Shown here one piece after another: positions 21,522-34,005 of a DNA stretch of 64,000 nt (position 1 is the first letter of the stretch; each line of letters starts with the position of its first letter). This DNA comes from an uncultured virus (IMG/VR IMGVR_UViG_3300013132_000038) (taxonomy: Duplodnaviria > Heunggongvirae > Uroviricota > Caudoviricetes), in the IMG/VR virus record IMGVR_UViG_3300013132_000038. One strand, given 5' to 3'. The notes under the pieces were generated by a model. It worked only from the letters and a program-made list of their open reading frames with translations. It had not been told where the DNA came from and made no database searches. The position numbers and the translations under genes are program-made.

Positions 21522-22008
21522 TATACAAGGACATAAATCCAAAAAATACACCTATTAAATGACCCCAGTGGGATATGCCATCGGGGTCATTTAGTGAAAG
21601 GACCTCACCTAATAGCAATATAAAGAATAACACTAATGTTATCTTATTAAATTTTATTAAATATCTAGTTGCCAAAAAGTAAACTAATCCAGATATTCCC
21701 ACACTCGGTAAAACACCAAATAAAGAAACAACAAAGCAGAAGCACTGGATTAAAAATACAATTAAAATCATCTGCTTTAAATTATATTTGTTTCCACTGT
21801 ATAGGAGTAAAAGAAAAAGGAAAATTATATTAAATAAGAAGTGCATTATATCATGGTGCATAAATCCGCTAACAAAAGGTAATGATACAGCAAGATCTGC
21901 ATTACCGCCTAATAATAACATAAGAATTATTCCCACAGGATAAGCTAATATACATACGCCAATCATTTTTAGCGTTTCTAACGAGGATCTTTTTAAACTG
22001 TCTTTCAT
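21433..22008 (-). CDS. rhomboid family intramembrane serine protease
   Basis: FMH...HFLFN, catalytic GISG, and H.GHLIG motif. Confidence 0.85.
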   Translation of the reverse strand: MKDSLKRSSLETLKMIGVCILAYPVGIILMLLLGGNADLAVSLPFVSGFMHHDIMHFLFNIIFLFLLLLYSGNKYNLKQMILIVFLIQCFCFVVSLFGVLPSVGISGLVYFLATRYLIKFNKITLVLFFILLLGEVLSLNDPDGISHWGHLIGVFFGFMSLYTNNYILRHLVNILPYKLVRVINNIFLPQQ

Positions 22009-22136
22009 AATAATTGTTTTGTTGTGTAATTGTAGAAAAAATCGTAAGATATAAAAAAAGATTCCGGATCTTTTTTATTAATAGAAATAGTCTATATTTG
22101 TGAAACAAAACAAAAAGGACAATATATAGTAATTAA

Positions 22137-22196
22137 ATGAACACAATATCTAACATATTACCTTTAATACTAAGACCGTCGATAAGACGGTCCTGA
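22137..22196 (+). CDS. putative attenuator leader peptide 1 (MNTISNILPLILRPSIRRS)
   Basis: 19-codon ORF after TATATTTG (22093) with an A-rich start; codons match the downstream tRNA set. Confidence 0.6.
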   Translation: MNTISNILPLILRPSIRRS

Positions 22197-22262
22197 AAGG
22201 TCCTGTATTAGTTTAACTATAACCATTAAAAACCGGGACCTTTAAAAAGTCCCGGTTTTTTT
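22196..22262 (+). promoter_or_regulatory. antiterminator/terminator pair before tRNA array 1
   Basis: Terminator AAAAACCGGGAC/GTCCCGGTTTTTTT; AAAGGTCCTG (22196-22205) can instead pair with CGGGACCTTT (22234-22243). Confidence 0.7.
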
Positions 22263-22292
22263 ATGTTCTTTGAAATGTTGGATTATTAAATT

Positions 22293-22382
22293 AGAGGGTT
22301 GCCAGAGCCAGGTTTAATGGATCAGTCTTGAAAACTGACGTAGTGAAAGCTACCGGGGGTTTGAATCCCTCACTCTCTGCCA
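22293..22382 (+). tRNA. tRNA-Ser(TGA)
   Basis: Cloverleaf with long variable arm, CT-TGA-AA loop, encoded CCA. Confidence 0.92.
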
Positions 22383-22385
22383 ATT

Positions 22386-22457
22386 GCCTCCGTAGTTCAA
22401 CGGATAGAACATGTGACTTCTAATCTCAAAATGTGGGTTCGATTCCCGCCGGAGGTA
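22386..22457 (+). tRNA. tRNA-Arg(TCT)
   Basis: Cloverleaf, CT-TCT-AA loop, GGTTCGATTCC T-arm. Confidence 0.9.
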
Positions 22458-22491
22458 CTAAAAAATAAAAGGGTCTATCGATATATAGATT

Positions 22492-23055
22492 ATGGAATAC
22501 AAAAAAGAAGAATTGGAAAAATATCTTTTTCAAGATAAATTAAATTACCGGCAGATTGGCGAAATCTACGGAACATCGGGAGTTTGGATAAGAAGAAAAG
22601 CTTTACAATTGGGAATACAATTAAAAACTAAAGAAAGCAAAAAATATTATTGTTTAAACTGCGATAAAGAAATAAAAAAAATGTCCAAGACACCAATATA
22701 TTGTAACAATAAATGTCAGGGCGATTATAAAAGAAAAAATAATATAGAATATTGGTTAAACAATCAGGATGAATTTTCTGATATTTTACTTAATCATTCA
22801 AAGAGTTATATTAAGTATTATTTAGAGAAAGAGCAGGGAAAAAAATGTAAAATATGTGGATGTAATTCAGTTTGGAATAATAAACCGATGGTTTTTATTC
22901 TGGATCATATAGACGGTAACGCTTCAAATAATAAAAGATTAAATCTTAGATTAATATGCCACAATTGCGATTCGCAGTTACCCACATATAAAAGCAAGAA
23001 TAAAAATTCTGCTAGAACTAGTAGATATAGAAAAAATACACCGCCCTCTACCTAG
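22492..23055 (+). CDS. HNH homing endonuclease inserted in the tRNA array
   Basis: CxxC, LDHIDGN..NN...NLRLICHNCDS. Confidence 0.9.
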   Translation: MEYKKEELEKYLFQDKLNYRQIGEIYGTSGVWIRRKALQLGIQLKTKESKKYYCLNCDKEIKKMSKTPIYCNNKCQGDYKRKNNIEYWLNNQDEFSDILLNHSKSYIKYYLEKEQGKKCKICGCNSVWNNKPMVFILDHIDGNASNNKRLNLRLICHNCDSQLPTYKSKNKNSARTSRYRKNTPPST

Positions 23056-23204
23056 CGCTGGGTATGGATCGAAGATAGAATATGCCTCTACACCGTAGAC
23101 AGGTAGGATACCTCGGTATTCTTTAATGATAAGCACACTTATTCTCCAAATCGTAGGTTGGCACAGTTTGCATGTTCTGGGGATATTAGAAAAACATGCA
23201 ACCG

Positions 23205-23277
23205 CGGGATGTAGATCAGTTGGTAGATCGCCTGGTTTGGGACCAGGAGGCCCCAGGTTCGAGTCCTGGTATCCCGA
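23205..23277 (+). tRNA. tRNA-Pro(TGG)
   Basis: Cloverleaf, TT-TGG-GA loop. Confidence 0.93.
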
Positions 23278-23284
23278 CAACCAC

Positions 23285-23358
23285 AGAGGCGTAGCTCAAT
23301 TGGTTAGAGCACATGCCTTATACGCATGCGGTCATGGGTTCGACTCCCATCGTCTCTA
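23285..23358 (+). tRNA. tRNA-Ile(TAT)
   Basis: CATGC-CT-TAT-AC-GCATG anticodon arm. Confidence 0.9.
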
Positions 23359-23362
23359 CTTA

Positions 23363-23436
23363 GGTCCCTTAGCTCAGTAGGTTAGAGCAACTGACTCATA
23401 ATCAGTAGGTCCACGGTTCGAGCCCGTGAGGGACCA
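23363..23436 (+). tRNA. tRNA with CAT anticodon, probably Ile2 (lysidine type)
   Basis: GGTCCCTTAGCTCAG...GACTCATAATC body resembles bacterial tRNA-Ile2. Confidence 0.85.
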
Positions 23437-23445
23437 CACAAGTCT

Positions 23446-23526
23446 GCCTGGGTGGTGAAACTGGTAGACACGTTCGGCTTAAGATCGAATGCGAAATGCG
23501 TGCGGGTTCGACTCCCGCCCCGGGTA
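23446..23526 (+). tRNA. tRNA-Leu(TAA)
   Basis: CT-TAA-GA loop, variable arm, T-arm. Confidence 0.9.
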
Positions 23527-23531
23527 CATTT

Positions 23532-23634
23532 TAAGAGTGGTGGAAGCGAGACCACTACAAGGATCCGATAGATAGACGCTAGGGTGCCATTCCCCGGAAC
23601 GAAAGTTCATGTTGGTGCAAGTCTAATCTCTTAC
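23532..23634 (+). ncRNA. tRNA-like structured RNA of unknown type
   Basis: Closing stem TAAGAG/CTCTTA, T-arm-like GTTGG-TGCAAGT-CTAAT, three internal hairpins. Confidence 0.45.
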
Positions 23635-23654
23635 TTTTTTTGGATATATAAATT

Positions 23655-24080
23655 ATGAAAATTAAAAGTATCCACGATTTTAATAATTCAATATTAAATA
23701 AACAATATCCTAAATATACACTAATAATAGGGGAAAAATCCGAGGATGTATTTAATTTCTTTGGCGTAGAAGAATTACACGGTCTATATAAAAAAGATTG
23801 CTACGATAATCCAGGTGATGCCTATATAGGCGGGTTATGTAATGTATATCCAGATGATCATAGTAAGTTATTTCTTTTTTTAAATGCAACAAGGCTAGGT
23901 AATGGATATAAAGATGTTTTATTGATTATGCACGAATCTATGCACCTATCTTTAGAAATACACGGAACAGATTTAACTTATAAAGGTGTAGATATAGAAG
24001 AAATTGCTATAACATGGGCAGAAGAAAATGCAGATTCAATTTACAATTTTATAAAATCTAGAGGAATAATAGATATATAA
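23655..24080 (+). CDS. putative zincin-like metallopeptidase
   Basis: HESMH ... EE motif. Confidence 0.45.
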   Translation: MKIKSIHDFNNSILNKQYPKYTLIIGEKSEDVFNFFGVEELHGLYKKDCYDNPGDAYIGGLCNVYPDDHSKLFLFLNATRLGNGYKDVLLIMHESMHLSLEIHGTDLTYKGVDIEEIAITWAEENADSIYNFIKSRGIIDI

Positions 24081-24091
24081 ATAAAAATACA

Positions 24092-24370
24092 ATGAAACAT
24101 ATATTCGAATTTGAATCATTTTCCGAAAAAGTAAACGAGGGATTCTGGGACTCCCTTTTTGGGAGACCAACTGTTGATGATGCAGCTCATGATTCTATGA
24201 GGGGACAAGGATGGAGTCATAGAGGTAAAGACGAAGAGAACTATATTATGTTTCAAGGACAAAAATTCTACCCGGATCAAATCCAATATGATGATGCTTA
24301 TTCAACTAAACCTATTCCAAGAATAGAAAATGGTATGTTAATAGTTGCTAATCCAGCATGGAATTTATAA
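24092..24370 (+). CDS. small protein with MKHIFEFESF N-terminus
   Basis: GATATATA at 24072 and shared motif. Confidence 0.55.
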   Translation: MKHIFEFESFSEKVNEGFWDSLFGRPTVDDAAHDSMRGQGWSHRGKDEENYIMFQGQKFYPDQIQYDDAYSTKPIPRIENGMLIVANPAWNL

Positions 24371-24446
24371 AAAAATTCAGGAATCATTTTTTTAATCAGA
24401 AACTTTTTACTACTTTTGTAATAATAAATAAAGGAACAAAAATTCA

Positions 24447-24521
24447 ATGCAACAATTTTTAAATATCGCACAGGTTCAACTCGATCGTCTTGAGGATATT
24501 GGAAAGTTCCAGAGGAATTAA
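24447..24521 (+). CDS. putative attenuator leader peptide 2 (MQQFLNIAQVQLDRLEDIGKFQRN)
   Basis: 24-codon ORF after TACTTTTG (24411), ending just before a terminator and tRNA array 2. Confidence 0.5.
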   Translation: MQQFLNIAQVQLDRLEDIGKFQRN

Positions 24522-24571
24522 ATTGATATAACGATACAATTGAAACCTCTGATAACCTCAGAGGTTTTTTT
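24510..24571 (+). promoter_or_regulatory. antiterminator/terminator pair before tRNA array 2
   Basis: Terminator AAACCTCTGA/TCAGAGGTTTTTTT; upstream CAGAGG (24510-24515) can pair with CCTCTG (24546-24551). Confidence 0.65.
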
Positions 24572-24601
24572 GTTTTATATGGTCTTTGAAATATTGAAAT
24601 T

Positions 24602-24686
24602 AGGAATAAGGTAACCACAAACCCACTGGTATTAGGCAGTTCTTGAGATGGAATGCAAGATAGAACGTAGGTCCTGCCTTATTCCT
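24602..24686 (+). ncRNA. structured RNA of unknown type
   Basis: 11-bp closing stem AGGAATAAGGT/GCCTTATTCCT with internal hairpins. Confidence 0.45.
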
Positions 24687-24692
24687 TCTTAT

Positions 24693-24764
24693 GGTCGGTT
24701 CATCTAGGGGTCAGGATACAAGGTTTTCATCCTTGTCACACGGGTTCGAATCCCGTACCGACTA
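24693..24764 (+). tRNA. tRNA-Glu(TTC)
   Basis: CAAGG-TT-TTC-AT-CCTTG anticodon arm, T-arm. Confidence 0.92.
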
Positions 24765-24821
24765 CGCAAAAAACATTGGACTGGGTTTCCCTATCCCGTT
24801 TGGGCAGGGTTTTGAAGGTTC

Positions 24822-24883
24822 GGGGATAAACAGTTAGAAGGGCCTTTCCTGAAAGACGGCTTGCTAGGCCCGTGTTTATCCCT
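24822..24883 (+). ncRNA. structured RNA of unknown type
   Basis: GGGGATAAACA/TGTTTATCCCT and GGGCCT/AGGCCC stacked stems. Confidence 0.45.
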
Positions 24884-24889
24884 ATTTTT

Positions 24890-24963
24890 GGTCCGTTAGT
24901 AGAGTTGGTCACAACGCCGCCCTGTCACGGCGGAGGTCATGGGTTCGAATCCCATACGGACCG
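24890..24963 (+). tRNA. tRNA-Asp(GTC)
   Basis: CCGCC-CT-GTC-AC-GGCGG anticodon arm. Confidence 0.92.
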
Positions 24964-24970
24964 CAGATAT

Positions 24971-25043
24971 TGCGGGATGTGGAAGATGGTTATCCGCTCG
25001 GTCTCATAAGCCGAGATCGCCAGTTCGAGTCTGGCTCCCGCTA
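24971..25043 (+). tRNA. tRNA-Met(CAT), initiator-like
   Basis: Unpaired 1:72 (T/T), GCGGGA acceptor, CTCATAA loop. Confidence 0.8.
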
Positions 25044-25047
25044 CTAA

Positions 25048-25128
25048 GCCCAGGTGGTGGAACGGTAGACACGCTAGATTTAGGATCTAGTGCCGAGAGG
25101 TGTGAGGGTTCGAGTCCCTCCCTGGGTA
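25048..25128 (+). tRNA. tRNA-Leu(TAG)
   Basis: CTAGA-TT-TAG-GA-TCTAG arm, variable arm. Confidence 0.92.
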
Positions 25129-25137
25129 CAATAAAAA

Positions 25138-25214
25138 GACCTTGTATCTCCTCGAACTCATAATGCGTAGAAAGGGTAATTGGTTACATGAGGGTTCGAT
25201 CCCCTCCGGGGCCA
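25138..25214 (+). ncRNA. non-canonical tRNA-like RNA (CAT loop, no conventional D-arm)
   Basis: Acceptor-like GACCTTG/CGGGGCC, intact T-arm GAGGG-TTCGATC-CCCTC, CTCATAA loop. Confidence 0.55.
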
Positions 25215-25234
25215 CAGAAAATAAAAAGGAATAT

Positions 25235-26047
25235 ATGATATGCGAAAGATGTAGTATAGAATACCATATAAAATATGGATCAGGAAGGTATTGTTCTAAA
25301 AAATGTGCATTTACGTTAAATGAGAATCAATTATCAGCATTAAGAAAGCCAAAATCCGAGGAGACTAAAAAAAATATGAGTAAACCCAAAAAAGATTCGT
25401 CTAAAATGGGGAAATATAATAAATGGGGTAATAATAATCCAAATTCGAAAAATAAAAAAGGAGATCTGAAATCCAGAAAAAATTCATCATATCATAATGT
25501 ATGCAAATCAAACAAAGATAATGGGTTAAGATGGGACGAGAAAGAAAAAAAGAATCATTCCGAAAAAATGAAAGGAGATTCTAATTGGATGAGAGGAAAA
25601 AAACACACGGAGAAAACTAAAACAAAAATATCAAACACTAAGAAAAACCAATATAAATTAGGTTTGGTGAAAAATAATTCATACTTTATATCAAAAGCAG
25701 AAAAAGAAATAGCATTGATATTAGAAGAGAATAAAATAACATACAAATCTCAGTACCCTCTAGATCGAGGGAGGTATTTTTATGATTTTTATATACCAGA
25801 AAAAAATCTAATAGTAGAATATAATGGGGATTTTTGGCACGGGAACCCGAATAAATATAAAGAAAATGACATAATAGGAGTAGGATCTACCAAAATGGAA
25901 GCTAAGTACAAATGGGAAATAGACAAAAAAAAGATGGAATACGCTACTTCTAAAGGATACAGATATTTAGTGATATGGGAATCTGATTACAAAAAGAATA
26001 AAAATATAATTATCAATCTATATGAAAATTTTGATATTGGATCATGA
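25235..26047 (+). CDS. homing endonuclease-like protein (NUMOD3-type repeats + Vsr/DUF559-like nuclease)
   Basis: GKKHTEKTKTKIS repeat; YDFY...IVEYNGDFWH ... VIWESD; real ATG at 25235. Confidence 0.8.
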   Translation: MICERCSIEYHIKYGSGRYCSKKCAFTLNENQLSALRKPKSEETKKNMSKPKKDSSKMGKYNKWGNNNPNSKNKKGDLKSRKNSSYHNVCKSNKDNGLRWDEKEKKNHSEKMKGDSNWMRGKKHTEKTKTKISNTKKNQYKLGLVKNNSYFISKAEKEIALILEENKITYKSQYPLDRGRYFYDFYIPEKNLIVEYNGDFWHGNPNKYKENDIIGVGSTKMEAKYKWEIDKKKMEYATSKGYRYLVIWESDYKKNKNIIINLYENFDIGS

Positions 26048-26540
26048 TGGGGTGATTTGCCTTGCTAATCAATGGGGAGGACGATACAAGAAGAAGGGAT
26101 ACGATAGTAATCCGGAAACACCTCTAGATATCCGTATGGACAGTTTTGACTCCAAGGCTGTTAAGGTTTTAAAAGAGATTATTGATATAACTGGATGTGA
26201 GATAGTTGTTTCGTCAGATTGGAAAAAATGGGGAAATCTAGAACAAATGCAGAAGATGTATATTACCAGAGGAATTAAGCCTCCAATAGATCTCACGCCA
26301 AACATGAAAGATTTTGACGAGAATGGTTTTGCTCTTTTTAATTGGAAAGGGTTTTATGAAGCTATTCGTGTTACAGAGATCCGAGAATGGCTTAAAAACC
26401 ATCCAGAGGTAACCCATTGGGTAGCTGTAGATGATCTTGACCTTTCCAAGTTAGAAAACTTTGTAATGACCACTCGACCTCATAACGAGGGTATAAAACA
26501 GTCGGGAATCAAGGATAAAATCGTTAAATTTTTATCTTAA
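26022..26540 (+). CDS. HAD-family phosphatase (Swiss-Army-knife RNA-repair-like)
   Basis: LDHDGV, VVSSDW, WVAVDD. Confidence 0.75.
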   Translation: MKILILDHDGVICLANQWGGRYKKKGYDSNPETPLDIRMDSFDSKAVKVLKEIIDITGCEIVVSSDWKKWGNLEQMQKMYITRGIKPPIDLTPNMKDFDENGFALFNWKGFYEAIRVTEIREWLKNHPEVTHWVAVDDLDLSKLENFVMTTRPHNEGIKQSGIKDKIVKFLS

Positions 26541-27059
26541 ATTGAAAAATCTTTTTTTAGGGCCGTTATATTTCACTATTTTTGTGATATAATGTATGTA
26601 TAAGTTTAACATTAAAAATTTTATTATGGAAAAACAAATTTTAAAAAGATTTACTATGAACGTAGATCACACAAACCCAGATGCTAAAGTGGAATTTACT
26701 GTTATTGGAACAGGTAAAACAGAAAAAGAAGCAGCGGTATTTGCTCTTGGTATGTTTTATAAAATTATGGACGGAGAGGAGGGAGATCAAGGCATTCAAA
26801 GATATGATGATGCTTTGGAAATTGTTAACGAGAAATTGAGTGCGGAGGAAATTGATCAAGCAGTAGACTCTTTAATACAGGGAGAGATAGAAAAAGATTC
26901 AGATATTTTCTATAATGCTTATGATTCCACTAAGGTTGAATATAGCTGGAGCGAGGTTAAAGAAGTGTCAGAGTGTGGATATACGGCCAGTATGGAAGTA
27001 ATTGAAACTTATTACTAATTAATTCGAAAAATATCAAAAATCATTTTTAGATATTTTGG

Positions 27060-27089
27060 AAAAGGCTTCGATTATTCGAAGCCTTTTTT
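27060..27089 (+). terminator. intrinsic terminator
   Basis: AAAAGGCTTCGA-TTAT-TCGAAGCCTTTTTT. Confidence 0.75.
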
Positions 27090-27099
27090 ATTTGTTCTT

Positions 27100-27171
27100 T
27101 TTTCCCTCGTCTAATTGGCAGGACATGTGGTTTTGGCCCACAGAATTAAGGCCCGAATCCTTGGGGGAAAA
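27100..27171 (+). tRNA. tRNA-Gln(TTG) with atypical T-loop
   Basis: TGTGG-TT-TTG-GC-CCACA arm; T-loop is CCCGAAT instead of TTCGAAT. Confidence 0.7.
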
Positions 27172-27211
27172 CAAAGATAAATATAATAGACCAGTATGTA
27201 AAAATGTAGTT

Positions 27212-27700
27212 ATGAAAGTGCTAGTATTAAATAATGACTTCACGCCGGTAAGCGTTACCGACTTTGCTCGGGGCTTTAAACTCGTATACAAGGGTAAAGC
27301 AGAGGTTTTGGAGCACGACGAAAATAATCCTATTGTTACGGATCAGAAAATTTACAAAAGGCCCTCAGTTATAAGACTGCTAAAGTATGTTGTTTTGCCT
27401 TTTAAGAAGTTAAAACCAACCAGGGAGAACATATTTAAGAGAGATGAATTAAAATGCTTATACTGTGATTATACAAAGCAACTTACTATAGATCACGTAA
27501 CTCCTAGATCTAGAGGAGGTATAAATACGTGGGAGAATCTTGCCACTTGCTGTTCTAAATGTAACAGTAAAAAGGGAGATAGAACCCCAGAAGAAGCAGG
27601 GATGAAAATGCGACATAGGCCATTTAAACCTGGATACGGGTATTTTATTAGGAAATTTTCCAGCGGTATGGATATTTGGACTGCATATTTACCAGAATAA
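27212..27700 (+). CDS. HNH endonuclease (McrA-like)
   Basis: VLVLN..F.P, RD..CLYC, TIDHV.PRSRGG..TWENLATCC..CN; real start ATG 27212. Confidence 0.9.
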   Translation: MKVLVLNNDFTPVSVTDFARGFKLVYKGKAEVLEHDENNPIVTDQKIYKRPSVIRLLKYVVLPFKKLKPTRENIFKRDELKCLYCDYTKQLTIDHVTPRSRGGINTWENLATCCSKCNSKKGDRTPEEAGMKMRHRPFKPGYGYFIRKFSSGMDIWTAYLPE

Positions 27701-32589: not shown

Positions 32590-32649
32590 ACTTTTTTATT
32601 GTATATATCCCTTCTTTGAAATTTTTAATTCTTAAATAGTATAAGTGAT

Positions 32650-32997: not shown

Positions 32998-34005
32998 CCA
33001 GAATCCTTTTTTTTTAAAGAGCTTATACTCTACATTTGGAATATAAAAAACAAAAAACAAAATGGAACCAGAAGAAATAAAAAAGCATTTAAATTTTGAA
33101 GAGGAAATCGATAGAATGTACGACGAACAGTCACGAAAGCTTTATTCTTATATGCAAATAGAGGGAGAAAAAGCCTTCGAAAAAGAAAGTCCATTGCACA
33201 AATTCTTAGACACGGATCTTTTTGAAAGATTAATTTCACACTTCGAATCTACAGAAGAATATGAAAAGTGTGCTTACATTTTAAAATTATCCCAGAGAAT
33301 AAAAGAAAAGATCTCTTAGGAAGAAACTTTATCGAAATTTCCCATATAATATAATATGGGAAAGGGAAAAAGATATATTAAAAAATCTGCTGATGGCAGA
33401 TTTTTTTTGCATATAGAGGAACCTGAGTACTCCATAGACCCGGACAAAAAAAGTAAGTTGTGGCTTTCTTCGCCATATCTTTTAGAGGAATCTTTGAAAC
33501 AAGATCCAGAAGTCACTAACAAGGTATTAAATTATCTAATAAAATGGAACGAGATAAACCAAAATTTCGAGACATGCTCAAGACTTCTTCTCTTAAAAAA
33601 CGATATAAAATAATCTATTTTTAAAACATTTTTCGGACCTAAACAAAAAATCCGAGTATAATAAATGTGTGTAATTAAAAATTAATAATATGAGGGATTT
33701 TTTTATTAATGGGGGATTTAATTTAGGTAGAATAATCTCTTTTTCTAAATCTGGGTATAGAGAAAGATATCCAGATAATGAGGTATATTTTAATGCTAAT
33801 ATTTTTGTTTTAGGTGAAGGAAAAGTTTGGTATGGGGATCTTGATATAACCAAAGAATCAGAATCACTTCAAAACATTGCTAGAGAAACTGGAAAAGATT
33901 TGTATATCCTTAGTGAAATGGACGGAAGATTTGGGAATGAAAATCTAGATGATTCTGAAATCATTAGGAGATCAATGTGTAAAATAACTAAATAATTTAA
34001 TTAAT

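Follow-up and report, generated by a model that had tools for sequence, protein, structure and literature searches.

A conserved leader with the anatomy of a translated attenuator precedes a tRNA array in an uncultured Caudoviricetes phage

The window analyzed here is the whole 64,000-nucleotide (nt) stretch of the IMG/VR virus record IMGVR_UViG_3300013132_000038, an AT-rich phage genome (31-37% GC) in which nearly all long open reading frames (ORFs) lie on the + strand. Leader 2, the region in front of the second tRNA array of this genome, is with good confidence a real and conserved unit and most likely a translated attenuator. It combines a predicted promoter, a short ORF, an antiterminator strand within the last codons of that ORF, an intrinsic terminator, and a boxA-like box, and it is followed by genes for tRNA-Glu, tRNA-Asp, tRNA-Met, and tRNA-Leu(tag); all of these features are on the + strand. 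More specifically, leader 2 may be a ribosome-mediated attenuator that senses the tRNAs of its own array through the codons of its leader ORF, a reading to which we assign a probability of roughly 0.55. The computed evidence consists of the anatomy of the unit, its conservation, its open frame, covariation, and a codon match across the wider family of such leaders.

Copies of leader 2 were gathered with a degenerate pattern for the stretch behind the terminator, which yielded 14 viral loci and 22 metagenome loci. Because the ORF is not part of this pattern, the sampling introduces no bias toward intact frames. Two metagenome loci were left out of the count, one cut by a contig end and one representing another leader type. 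The complete copies number 34: the window itself, all 13 of the viral contigs, and all 20 of the metagenome contigs. As a few of the latter may be duplicates of viral contigs, the sound count is 17 distinct ORF sequences. The order of elements is constant in all 34 copies: a T-run and TAnnTTTG promoter, an A-rich 5′ untranslated region (UTR), the ORF, the antiterminator strand, an inner hairpin, the terminator, the box, and tRNA-Glu.

The leader ORF occupies 24447-24521, starts with ATG, and has 24 codons encoding the peptide MQQFLNIAQVQLDRLEDIGKFQRN. Its frame is kept open in relatives, namely in every complete copy and thus in all 17 distinct sequences. The ORF comes in six lengths (75, 78, 84, 90, 93, and 96 nt), every one a multiple of three. 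There are no in-frame stops in the 17 ORFs, and the other two frames each carry one to four stops per sequence. Variable columns number 8, 17, and 18 at codon positions 1, 2, and 3, and 23 codon columns are amino-acid-changing versus 8 that vary only synonymously. The peptide sequence is not conserved; the frame is. An open frame with a free peptide fits a sensor ORF and argues against both a functional micro-protein and a chance frame. Translation of leader 2 is inferred from this pattern.

The predicted promoter (24387-24418) consists of a T-run upstream element at 24387-24393 and a -7 box, TACTTTTG, at 24411-24418; it was assigned by sequence and conservation, and its activity is presumed on that basis. 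Both GAAACTTTT and TAnnTTTG are unchanged in 11 of 11 aligned relatives, and the composite of T-run and TAnnTTTG also stands before leader 1 and, at 26552-26584 and 33007-33038, before ordinary genes of the window. Excerpts of two studies of Bacteroidota give the promoter -7 consensus as TTTG/TANNTTTG with G at -5, and describe transcripts without Shine-Dalgarno sequences in which A-rich upstream regions are favored (PMC6847099, PMC9723704). A -7 element of this type places the predicted transcription start near 24423, and the A-rich preference fits the A-rich 5′ UTR of 24 nt.

The intrinsic terminator (24542-24576), recognized by a terminator scan and by folding, comprises a hairpin of 11 pairs with a loop of 5 at 24542-24568 and a T tract, and it is found in every relative. 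Terminator-like sites are frequent in this part of the genome, with 11 between 21000 and 28500 versus 4.7 +/- 2.5 in shuffled sequences. Folded alone, the terminator (24542-24572) has an energy of -13.9 kcal/mol (z -5.27), which none of 200 shuffles equals. The antiterminator strand, CAGAGG at 24510-24515, lies in codons 22-23, 3 nt before the stop codon, and pairs with CCTCTG at 24546-24551. Between the stop codon and the terminator, folds and the alignment place an inner hairpin P (24521-24541), which stacks inside the antiterminator. The antiterminator together with P folds at -10.0 kcal/mol (z -5.15, again with 0 of 200 shuffles equal). The two structures are mutually exclusive because both use 24546-24551. 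The whole leader (24420-24600) has an unremarkable z of -1.23, and only these two sub-structures stand out.

Both alternative structures are also supported by comparison among relatives. The duplex of the CAGAGG strand with the 5′ arm of the terminator has an energy of -10.5 kcal/mol, matched by 29 of 3000 shuffles. On an alignment of 11 sequences, 93.5% of the cells of the antiterminator and P are paired, versus 29-55% with slid partners; in four pairs both bases have changed, and none of 500 shuffles does as well. The L012 row of this alignment is misaligned by one column, which makes its cells unreliable, and L012 was checked separately. One pair of P is G:C in three sequences and A:U in three, and P may serve as a pause hairpin. 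The terminator stem exists in three variants (that of the window and L006, that of L012, and that of L060), each complementary to its own ORF tail, with duplex energies of -9.4 to -11.8 kcal/mol; shuffled tails are as good in 29, 12, 142, and 20 of 3000 cases. In L012, the 5′ arm has G in place of T, and the 3′ arm and the ORF strand both have C in place of A, which is exactly the compensation that a three-strand switch predicts. A Fisher combination of the antiterminator complement over seven leader types gives p = 1e-5.

Two structures this well supported would also be expected of an untranslated RNA switch that responds to a protein, a metabolite, or uncharged tRNA in the manner of a T-box, with the ORF as a chance frame. 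Such a switch is very improbable here: the frame stays open through six lengths and 17 sequences while the other frames are closed, the variable part of the ORF has no conserved structure, and no Rfam family, the T-box included, matches 24400-24600 even when E values up to 5 are admitted. At the gathering threshold, Rfam finds only tRNAs. In nascent RNA reaching 24556, the antiterminator is the minimum-energy fold without a ribosome and also with a footprint of 30 nt, the customary size of a ribosome footprint, on any codon of 24480-24497. When the A site holds the stop codon (footprint 24504-24533), formation of the antiterminator is blocked in silico.

Codons were scored in seven leader types: leaders 1 and 2 of the window, leader 3 of its relatives, one leader in a 343-kb phage, two in a 38-kb contig, and one in a 202-kb metagenome contig. 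Each leader was scored against the tRNAs behind it, with the 43 long ORFs of the window as background and with both strict and loose wobble. Six of the seven types match their own array best (binomial P from 3.7e-8 to 0.019), and the true leader-array pairing has the highest total score of 5040 permutations under strict and loose wobble alike. The match extends to synonymous codons. For isoleucine, ATA occurs before tRNA-Ile(tat) and ATC or ATT before Ile(gat); for arginine, AGA occurs before Arg(tct) and CGC before Arg(acg); for leucine, TTA occurs before Leu(taa), and CTN is used in the leader-2 cluster before Leu(tag).

Leader 1 of the window (22062-22276) has the same design and precedes the Ser-Arg-Pro-Ile-Met-Leu(taa) array. 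Its ORF has 19 codons, and 10-13 of 18 are read by its own array (P = 3e-4 to 1e-5). In L001 and L004, the stop codon of leader 1 is lost and the frame continues through the antiterminator strand. The Rfam Thr_leader model scores 24.7 bits over leader 1 against a cut-off of 55, and leader 1 is not a member of that family. In L078 (5540-5837 of G006, the 343-kb phage), a distant jumbo relative, 19 consecutive leader codons at positions 7-25 are all read by the following array, which is composed of Ser, Thr, Cys, His, Leu, Leu, Ser, Met, Asp, Ser, and Glu.

Within leader 2, the candidate sensor codons are those for L-D-R-L-E-D at 24480-24497, and array-2 tRNAs can decode five of these six provided that Leu(UAG) reads CUY. 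Under the same assumption the cluster in the window has five of seven cognate codons (P = 0.04). In the L006 type, all seven cluster codons are cognate, a level reached by none of 20,000 random segments, and the clusters of L047 and L004 have six of seven (P about 0.008). The distance from the cluster end to the antiterminator strand is 11-12 nt in the window (12 nt), L006, L012, and L060 types, and the four spacer codons between them differ. Given the size of a ribosome footprint, 11-12 nt is the last place at which a stalled ribosome leaves the strand free.

Several observations weigh against own-tRNA sensing. The window leader 2 has 3 of 23 cognate codons with strict wobble (P = 0.79) and 5 of 23 with loose wobble (P = 0.48); it is the sole exception among the seven types, and the array it matches best is not its own. 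With strict wobble, the CTC and CTT codons go unread by Leu(UAG), and the cluster falls to three of seven, which is at chance (P = 0.45). Weak clusters are seen in L060 (P = 0.26) and L063 (P = 0.23). The near-invariant GAGGAT within the cluster duplicates the antiterminator-strand core, and constraints on the RNA could account for its retention. Leaders and arrays do not always change together: leader 3 is unchanged in L002 and L005, which have an array of 6 tRNAs versus 15 in L006, and the window retains an orphan terminator before tRNA-Gln. The complement of the antiterminator is not significant in some other leader types (T7, 857 of 3000; T4, 451 of 3000). In the full leader at equilibrium, the terminator wins at every ribosome position, and the switch therefore needs a kinetic argument; the decision in classical attenuators is kinetic. 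The nascent-RNA folds also reveal no upstream partner of the antiterminator strand that would play the role of region 1 of trp, and untranslated transcripts should therefore read through, unlike those of trp.

Alternatively, the same hardware may sense translation in general, with any slowing or loss of leader translation, for instance by host shut-off, ribosome shortage, or global tRNA damage, admitting polymerase to the array; the Leu/Asp/Glu cluster would then be incidental or retained through constraints on the RNA. In 15 of the 17 leader-2 variants, the cognate count over the entire ORF stays at background level (P = 0.10-0.83); with loose wobble, L047 and L069 reach about 0.02. Moreover, 15-16 of the 23 codons of the window leader 2 are read by tRNAs of the third array type and not by those of array 2, a stall anywhere in the ORF would free the strand just as the absence of translation would, and GAGGAT overlaps the repeat of the strand core. 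A general sensor is nonetheless the less likely option, since each of the remaining six leader types is matched to its own array, even in the choice among synonymous codons, the L006-type cluster is fully cognate, and the cluster end keeps a fixed distance from the strand. The proposal of the sequence-only reading that the amino-acid bias shifts with the array applies across the family, with six of seven types and the best of the 5040 pairings, and is weak for leader 2 itself.

That proposal had also linked the glutamine codons of leader 2 to the tRNA-Gln gene at 27100. The five Gln codons are present in the window, but their number falls to two in relatives, and tRNA-Gln belongs to a separate third array; the link is rejected. 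In relatives, the third array has its own promoter and a 35-codon leader that holds every amino acid of the 15-tRNA array, with tRNA-Gln last. In the window, array 2 is separated from tRNA-Gln by three protein genes and a terminator. A remnant of the third leader is recognizable at 27020-27172, where a terminator (27057-27090) and the first half of a boxA-like box abut tRNA-Gln, and the promoter and ORF are gone. The window seems to have lost the leader-3 ORF and 14 tRNAs by two deletions.

The following sequence of events is proposed for leader 2. Transcription would start at about 24423 from a Bacteroidota-type promoter, and the 24-codon ORF would be translated while RNA polymerase proceeds. 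A ribosome that arrives in time at the last codons and the stop codon (24519-24521) would place its footprint on CAGAGG, the terminator would form, and a transcript of ~150 nt would be released at the T tract. A ribosome held back in the ORF would instead leave CAGAGG free to pair with the 5′ arm of the terminator and so permit read-through; such a delay would be likeliest at the Leu, Asp, and Glu codons of 24480-24497, which end 12 nt before the strand. The boxA-like box would then probably recruit factors that carry polymerase through the untranslated array. The outcome would be a feedback loop in which slow decoding leads to more phage tRNA. In this scheme we infer translation, the kinetic switch, Nus loading, and the identity of the limiting codons. 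Leader-peptide attenuation has been described as likely in a flavobacterium, according to an excerpt of PMC9723704. On a still more tentative footing, large lake phages of Bacteroidota type may carry tRNA modules that each have their own codon-matched leader, switchable terminator, and boxA, and that act as per-module homeostats of tRNA supply, switched on only when the pool for those codons runs short.

The boxA-like box, ATGGTCTTTGAAAT at 24579-24592, was identified by sequence and by its match to consensus. An excerpt of PMC13753749 gives the boxA consensus of ribosomal RNA (rrn) operons as UGCUCUUUAACA in E. coli and AUGAUCUUUGAAA in B. subtilis, the latter binding NusB, and an excerpt of PMC5725501 gives a boxA consensus of GYTCTTTAANA. 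The box agrees with the B. subtilis rrn consensus AUGAUCUUUGAAA at 12 of 13 positions. Its agreement with GYTCTTTAANA is 9 of 11 positions in the window and rises to 10 of 11 in those relatives whose second position is C or T. In 7 related contigs (~1.08 Mb), the combination of a T-run and TCTTTGAMAT is present at 17 distinct sites, each of which follows the terminator of a tRNA-array leader and shares the strand of the tRNAs; the reversed-pattern control has 0 sites. The box would probably recruit NusB/S10-type factors. The sole other T-run with TCTTTGAAAT in the window, at 32590-32622, falls between divergent genes, has neither a terminator hairpin nor tRNAs, and is probably due to chance.

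The position of the box relative to the array bears on how the tRNA genes could be transcribed. In L006, L008, L010, L013, L046, L047, and L049, tRNA-Glu begins 4 nt behind the box; a gap of 4 nt leaves no room for another promoter, and transcription of the array must therefore pass the terminator. It is improbable that leader 2 is an ordinary small gene or a ~150-nt small RNA with its own terminator whose neighboring tRNAs are transcribed by constitutive leak-through. Promoter, ORF, and strong terminator do make up a self-contained unit, and an N-terminal N-I motif is common to several leader types. A 152-nt contig from an RNA library spans about this unit as well, although it is not a sign of transcription. 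This contig (X16, covering 24442-24576) and a second (X17, 151 nt, covering 24476-24592 and running on) are assembled from relatives and show neither ends nor transcription; DNA is possible in such libraries, and nothing is drawn from them. Against a small gene or RNA stand the poorly conserved peptide with its 23 versus 8 columns and lack of third-position bias, the covariation of the ORF tail with the terminator arm, and the box and tRNAs directly behind with no other promoter. It would also leave the codon-array match across leader types without a role.

Much of this anatomy had been proposed in the sequence-only reading, and every element that it lists is present in the sequence. The short translated-type ORF and the promoter TACTTTTG at 24411 are where they had been placed, the terminator and antiterminator (CAGAGG/CCTCTG) are present, mutually exclusive, and backed by covariation, a boxA-like element lies downstream of the terminator, and ARAGORN calls all of the tRNAs that had been listed, including Gln(TTG) at 27100. 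Conservation of the ORF in relatives, on which the proposal had been made to depend, is seen in all 34 copies and leaves it unrefuted, and its core, a translated leader whose exclusive antiterminator and terminator gate array 2, is backed by conservation, the open frame, and covariation. Leader 2 had been called sequence-unrelated to leader 1; this is accurate for the ORF and the switch, but the promoter composite, the A-rich 5′ UTR, the T-run, and the box are common to both. An internal hairpin, CTCGA/TTGAG, exists in the window but is not conserved. In longer relatives a 12-nt insertion interrupts its 5′ arm, and 233 of 500 shuffles reach its covariation measures; it was rejected as a conserved part.

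Array 2 consists of tRNA-Glu(ttc) at 24693-24765, tRNA-Asp(gtc) at 24890-24964, tRNA-Met(cat) at 24971-25044, and tRNA-Leu(tag) at 25048-25129, each called by ARAGORN and Rfam. A degenerate tRNA-like remnant follows at 25139-25214, located by alignment at the site of the second tRNA-Met of relatives; its T-arm and CCA-proximal end are recognizable, and neither ARAGORN nor Rfam makes a call. In total, ARAGORN finds 11 tRNAs in the window, namely Ser-Arg and Pro-Ile-Met-Leu(taa) at 22293-23527, Glu-Asp-Met-Leu(tag) at 24693-25129, and Gln at 27100. Some relatives contain a tRNA with the anticodon tta, which would read the stop codon TAA (L012, 7927-7998; L011, 4036-4107), and ARAGORN calls a tRNA with a four-letter anticodon (ttta) in both L067 and L071. 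Suppression or frameshifting may be the role of these tRNAs.

Two structured inserts of ~100-120 nt are present, one between the box and tRNA-Glu (24596-24692) and one between tRNA-Glu and tRNA-Asp (24766-24889). Most relatives lack both and have their tRNAs spaced 4-10 nt apart. The first is a structured spacer (-24.9 kcal/mol, z -1.78) with paired substitutions in a stem, and it is common only to the window and L001, L003, and L004. No Rfam family matches either insert, and the two may be small stable RNAs or mobile inserts. Within the tRNA region, the ORF at 26022-26537 encodes a "Swiss Army Knife" RNA-repair HAD domain (Pfam HAD_SAK_2, E = 1.2e-21) and adjoins genes for HNH-type nucleases (27212-27697). 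The cysteine-rich ORFs that interrupt the arrays (22492-23052 and 25232-26044) have no Pfam match.

Besides the HNH nucleases and the RNA-repair-type HAD domain, the window encodes a tail-sheath-like protein. A search of public phage genomes with 22000-27400 gave 632 matching records, all of which match in tRNA genes only and none over more than 5% of the query, and no annotated close relative was found among them. The nearest virus record, G001 (17 kb), does not cover this region, and a search of genome contigs with the IMPDH-like protein of the window found no relative. The 92-amino-acid gene directly upstream of leader 2 (24092-24367) has relatives on 15 viral contigs. Among public sequencing runs, the best DNA holders of window sequence are lake and freshwater metagenomes, and together with the promoter motif this suggests a host of Bacteroidota type.

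If own-tRNA sensing is correct, leader 2 applies the logic of attenuation to tRNA genes, so that the sensed molecule is also the product. Such control would account for the way in which phages with large tRNA sets escape the production of tRNAs that are not needed, and it would tie phage tRNA expression to the decoding state of the host, including tRNA-targeting defenses. A homeostat of this kind would turn on a tRNA set after, for example, cleavage or depletion of host tRNAs in infection. The combination of promoter, programmable codon sensor, terminator, and boxA would also constitute a compact modular part whose input could be changed by recoding a frame of 20-30 codons. No description of leader-peptide control of tRNA genes was found in the literature covered (Creative-Commons papers in PubMed Central, and bioRxiv). 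To our knowledge, the textbook cases of ribosome-mediated attenuation concern amino-acid synthesis and a synthetase operon.

Leader-peptide attenuators include the trp, his, and leu leaders and the multivalent thr and ilv leaders of enterobacteria. Leader 2 resembles these amino-acid-operon attenuators in having a short ORF right behind the promoter and a terminator with an exclusive antiterminator, between which the position of the ribosome would decide, and it resembles the thr and ilv leaders in having putative sensor codons of more than one kind. It differs in that it would regulate tRNAs and not enzymes, with the product being the sensed molecule, and in that its antiterminator strand is part of the final codons of the ORF, adjacent to the stop, and a boxA-like box stands behind the terminator. 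Unlike the trp type, its folds show no region-1-like partner, so that a lack of translation should lead to read-through and not to super-attenuation; region 1 defines the trp type and not the whole attenuator class. None of the Rfam leader families matches leader 2.

The pheST-type attenuator controls an aminoacyl-tRNA synthetase operon by means of a leader peptide. Like leader 2 as proposed here, it places a component of the decoding machinery under a leader-peptide attenuator instead of amino-acid synthesis, whereas it serves a protein-coding operon, senses a run of one codon type, and resides in a cellular genome. In T-box regulation, read-through of a terminator likewise rises when a specific charged tRNA is lacking, but the T-box binds tRNA directly and has no ORF, and leader 2 has no T-box match. 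As in boxA/Nus antitermination of rrn operons, the box of leader 2 heads an untranslated multi-gene RNA operon; unlike the rrn boxA, it precedes phage tRNA genes and lies directly behind the terminator of an attenuator.

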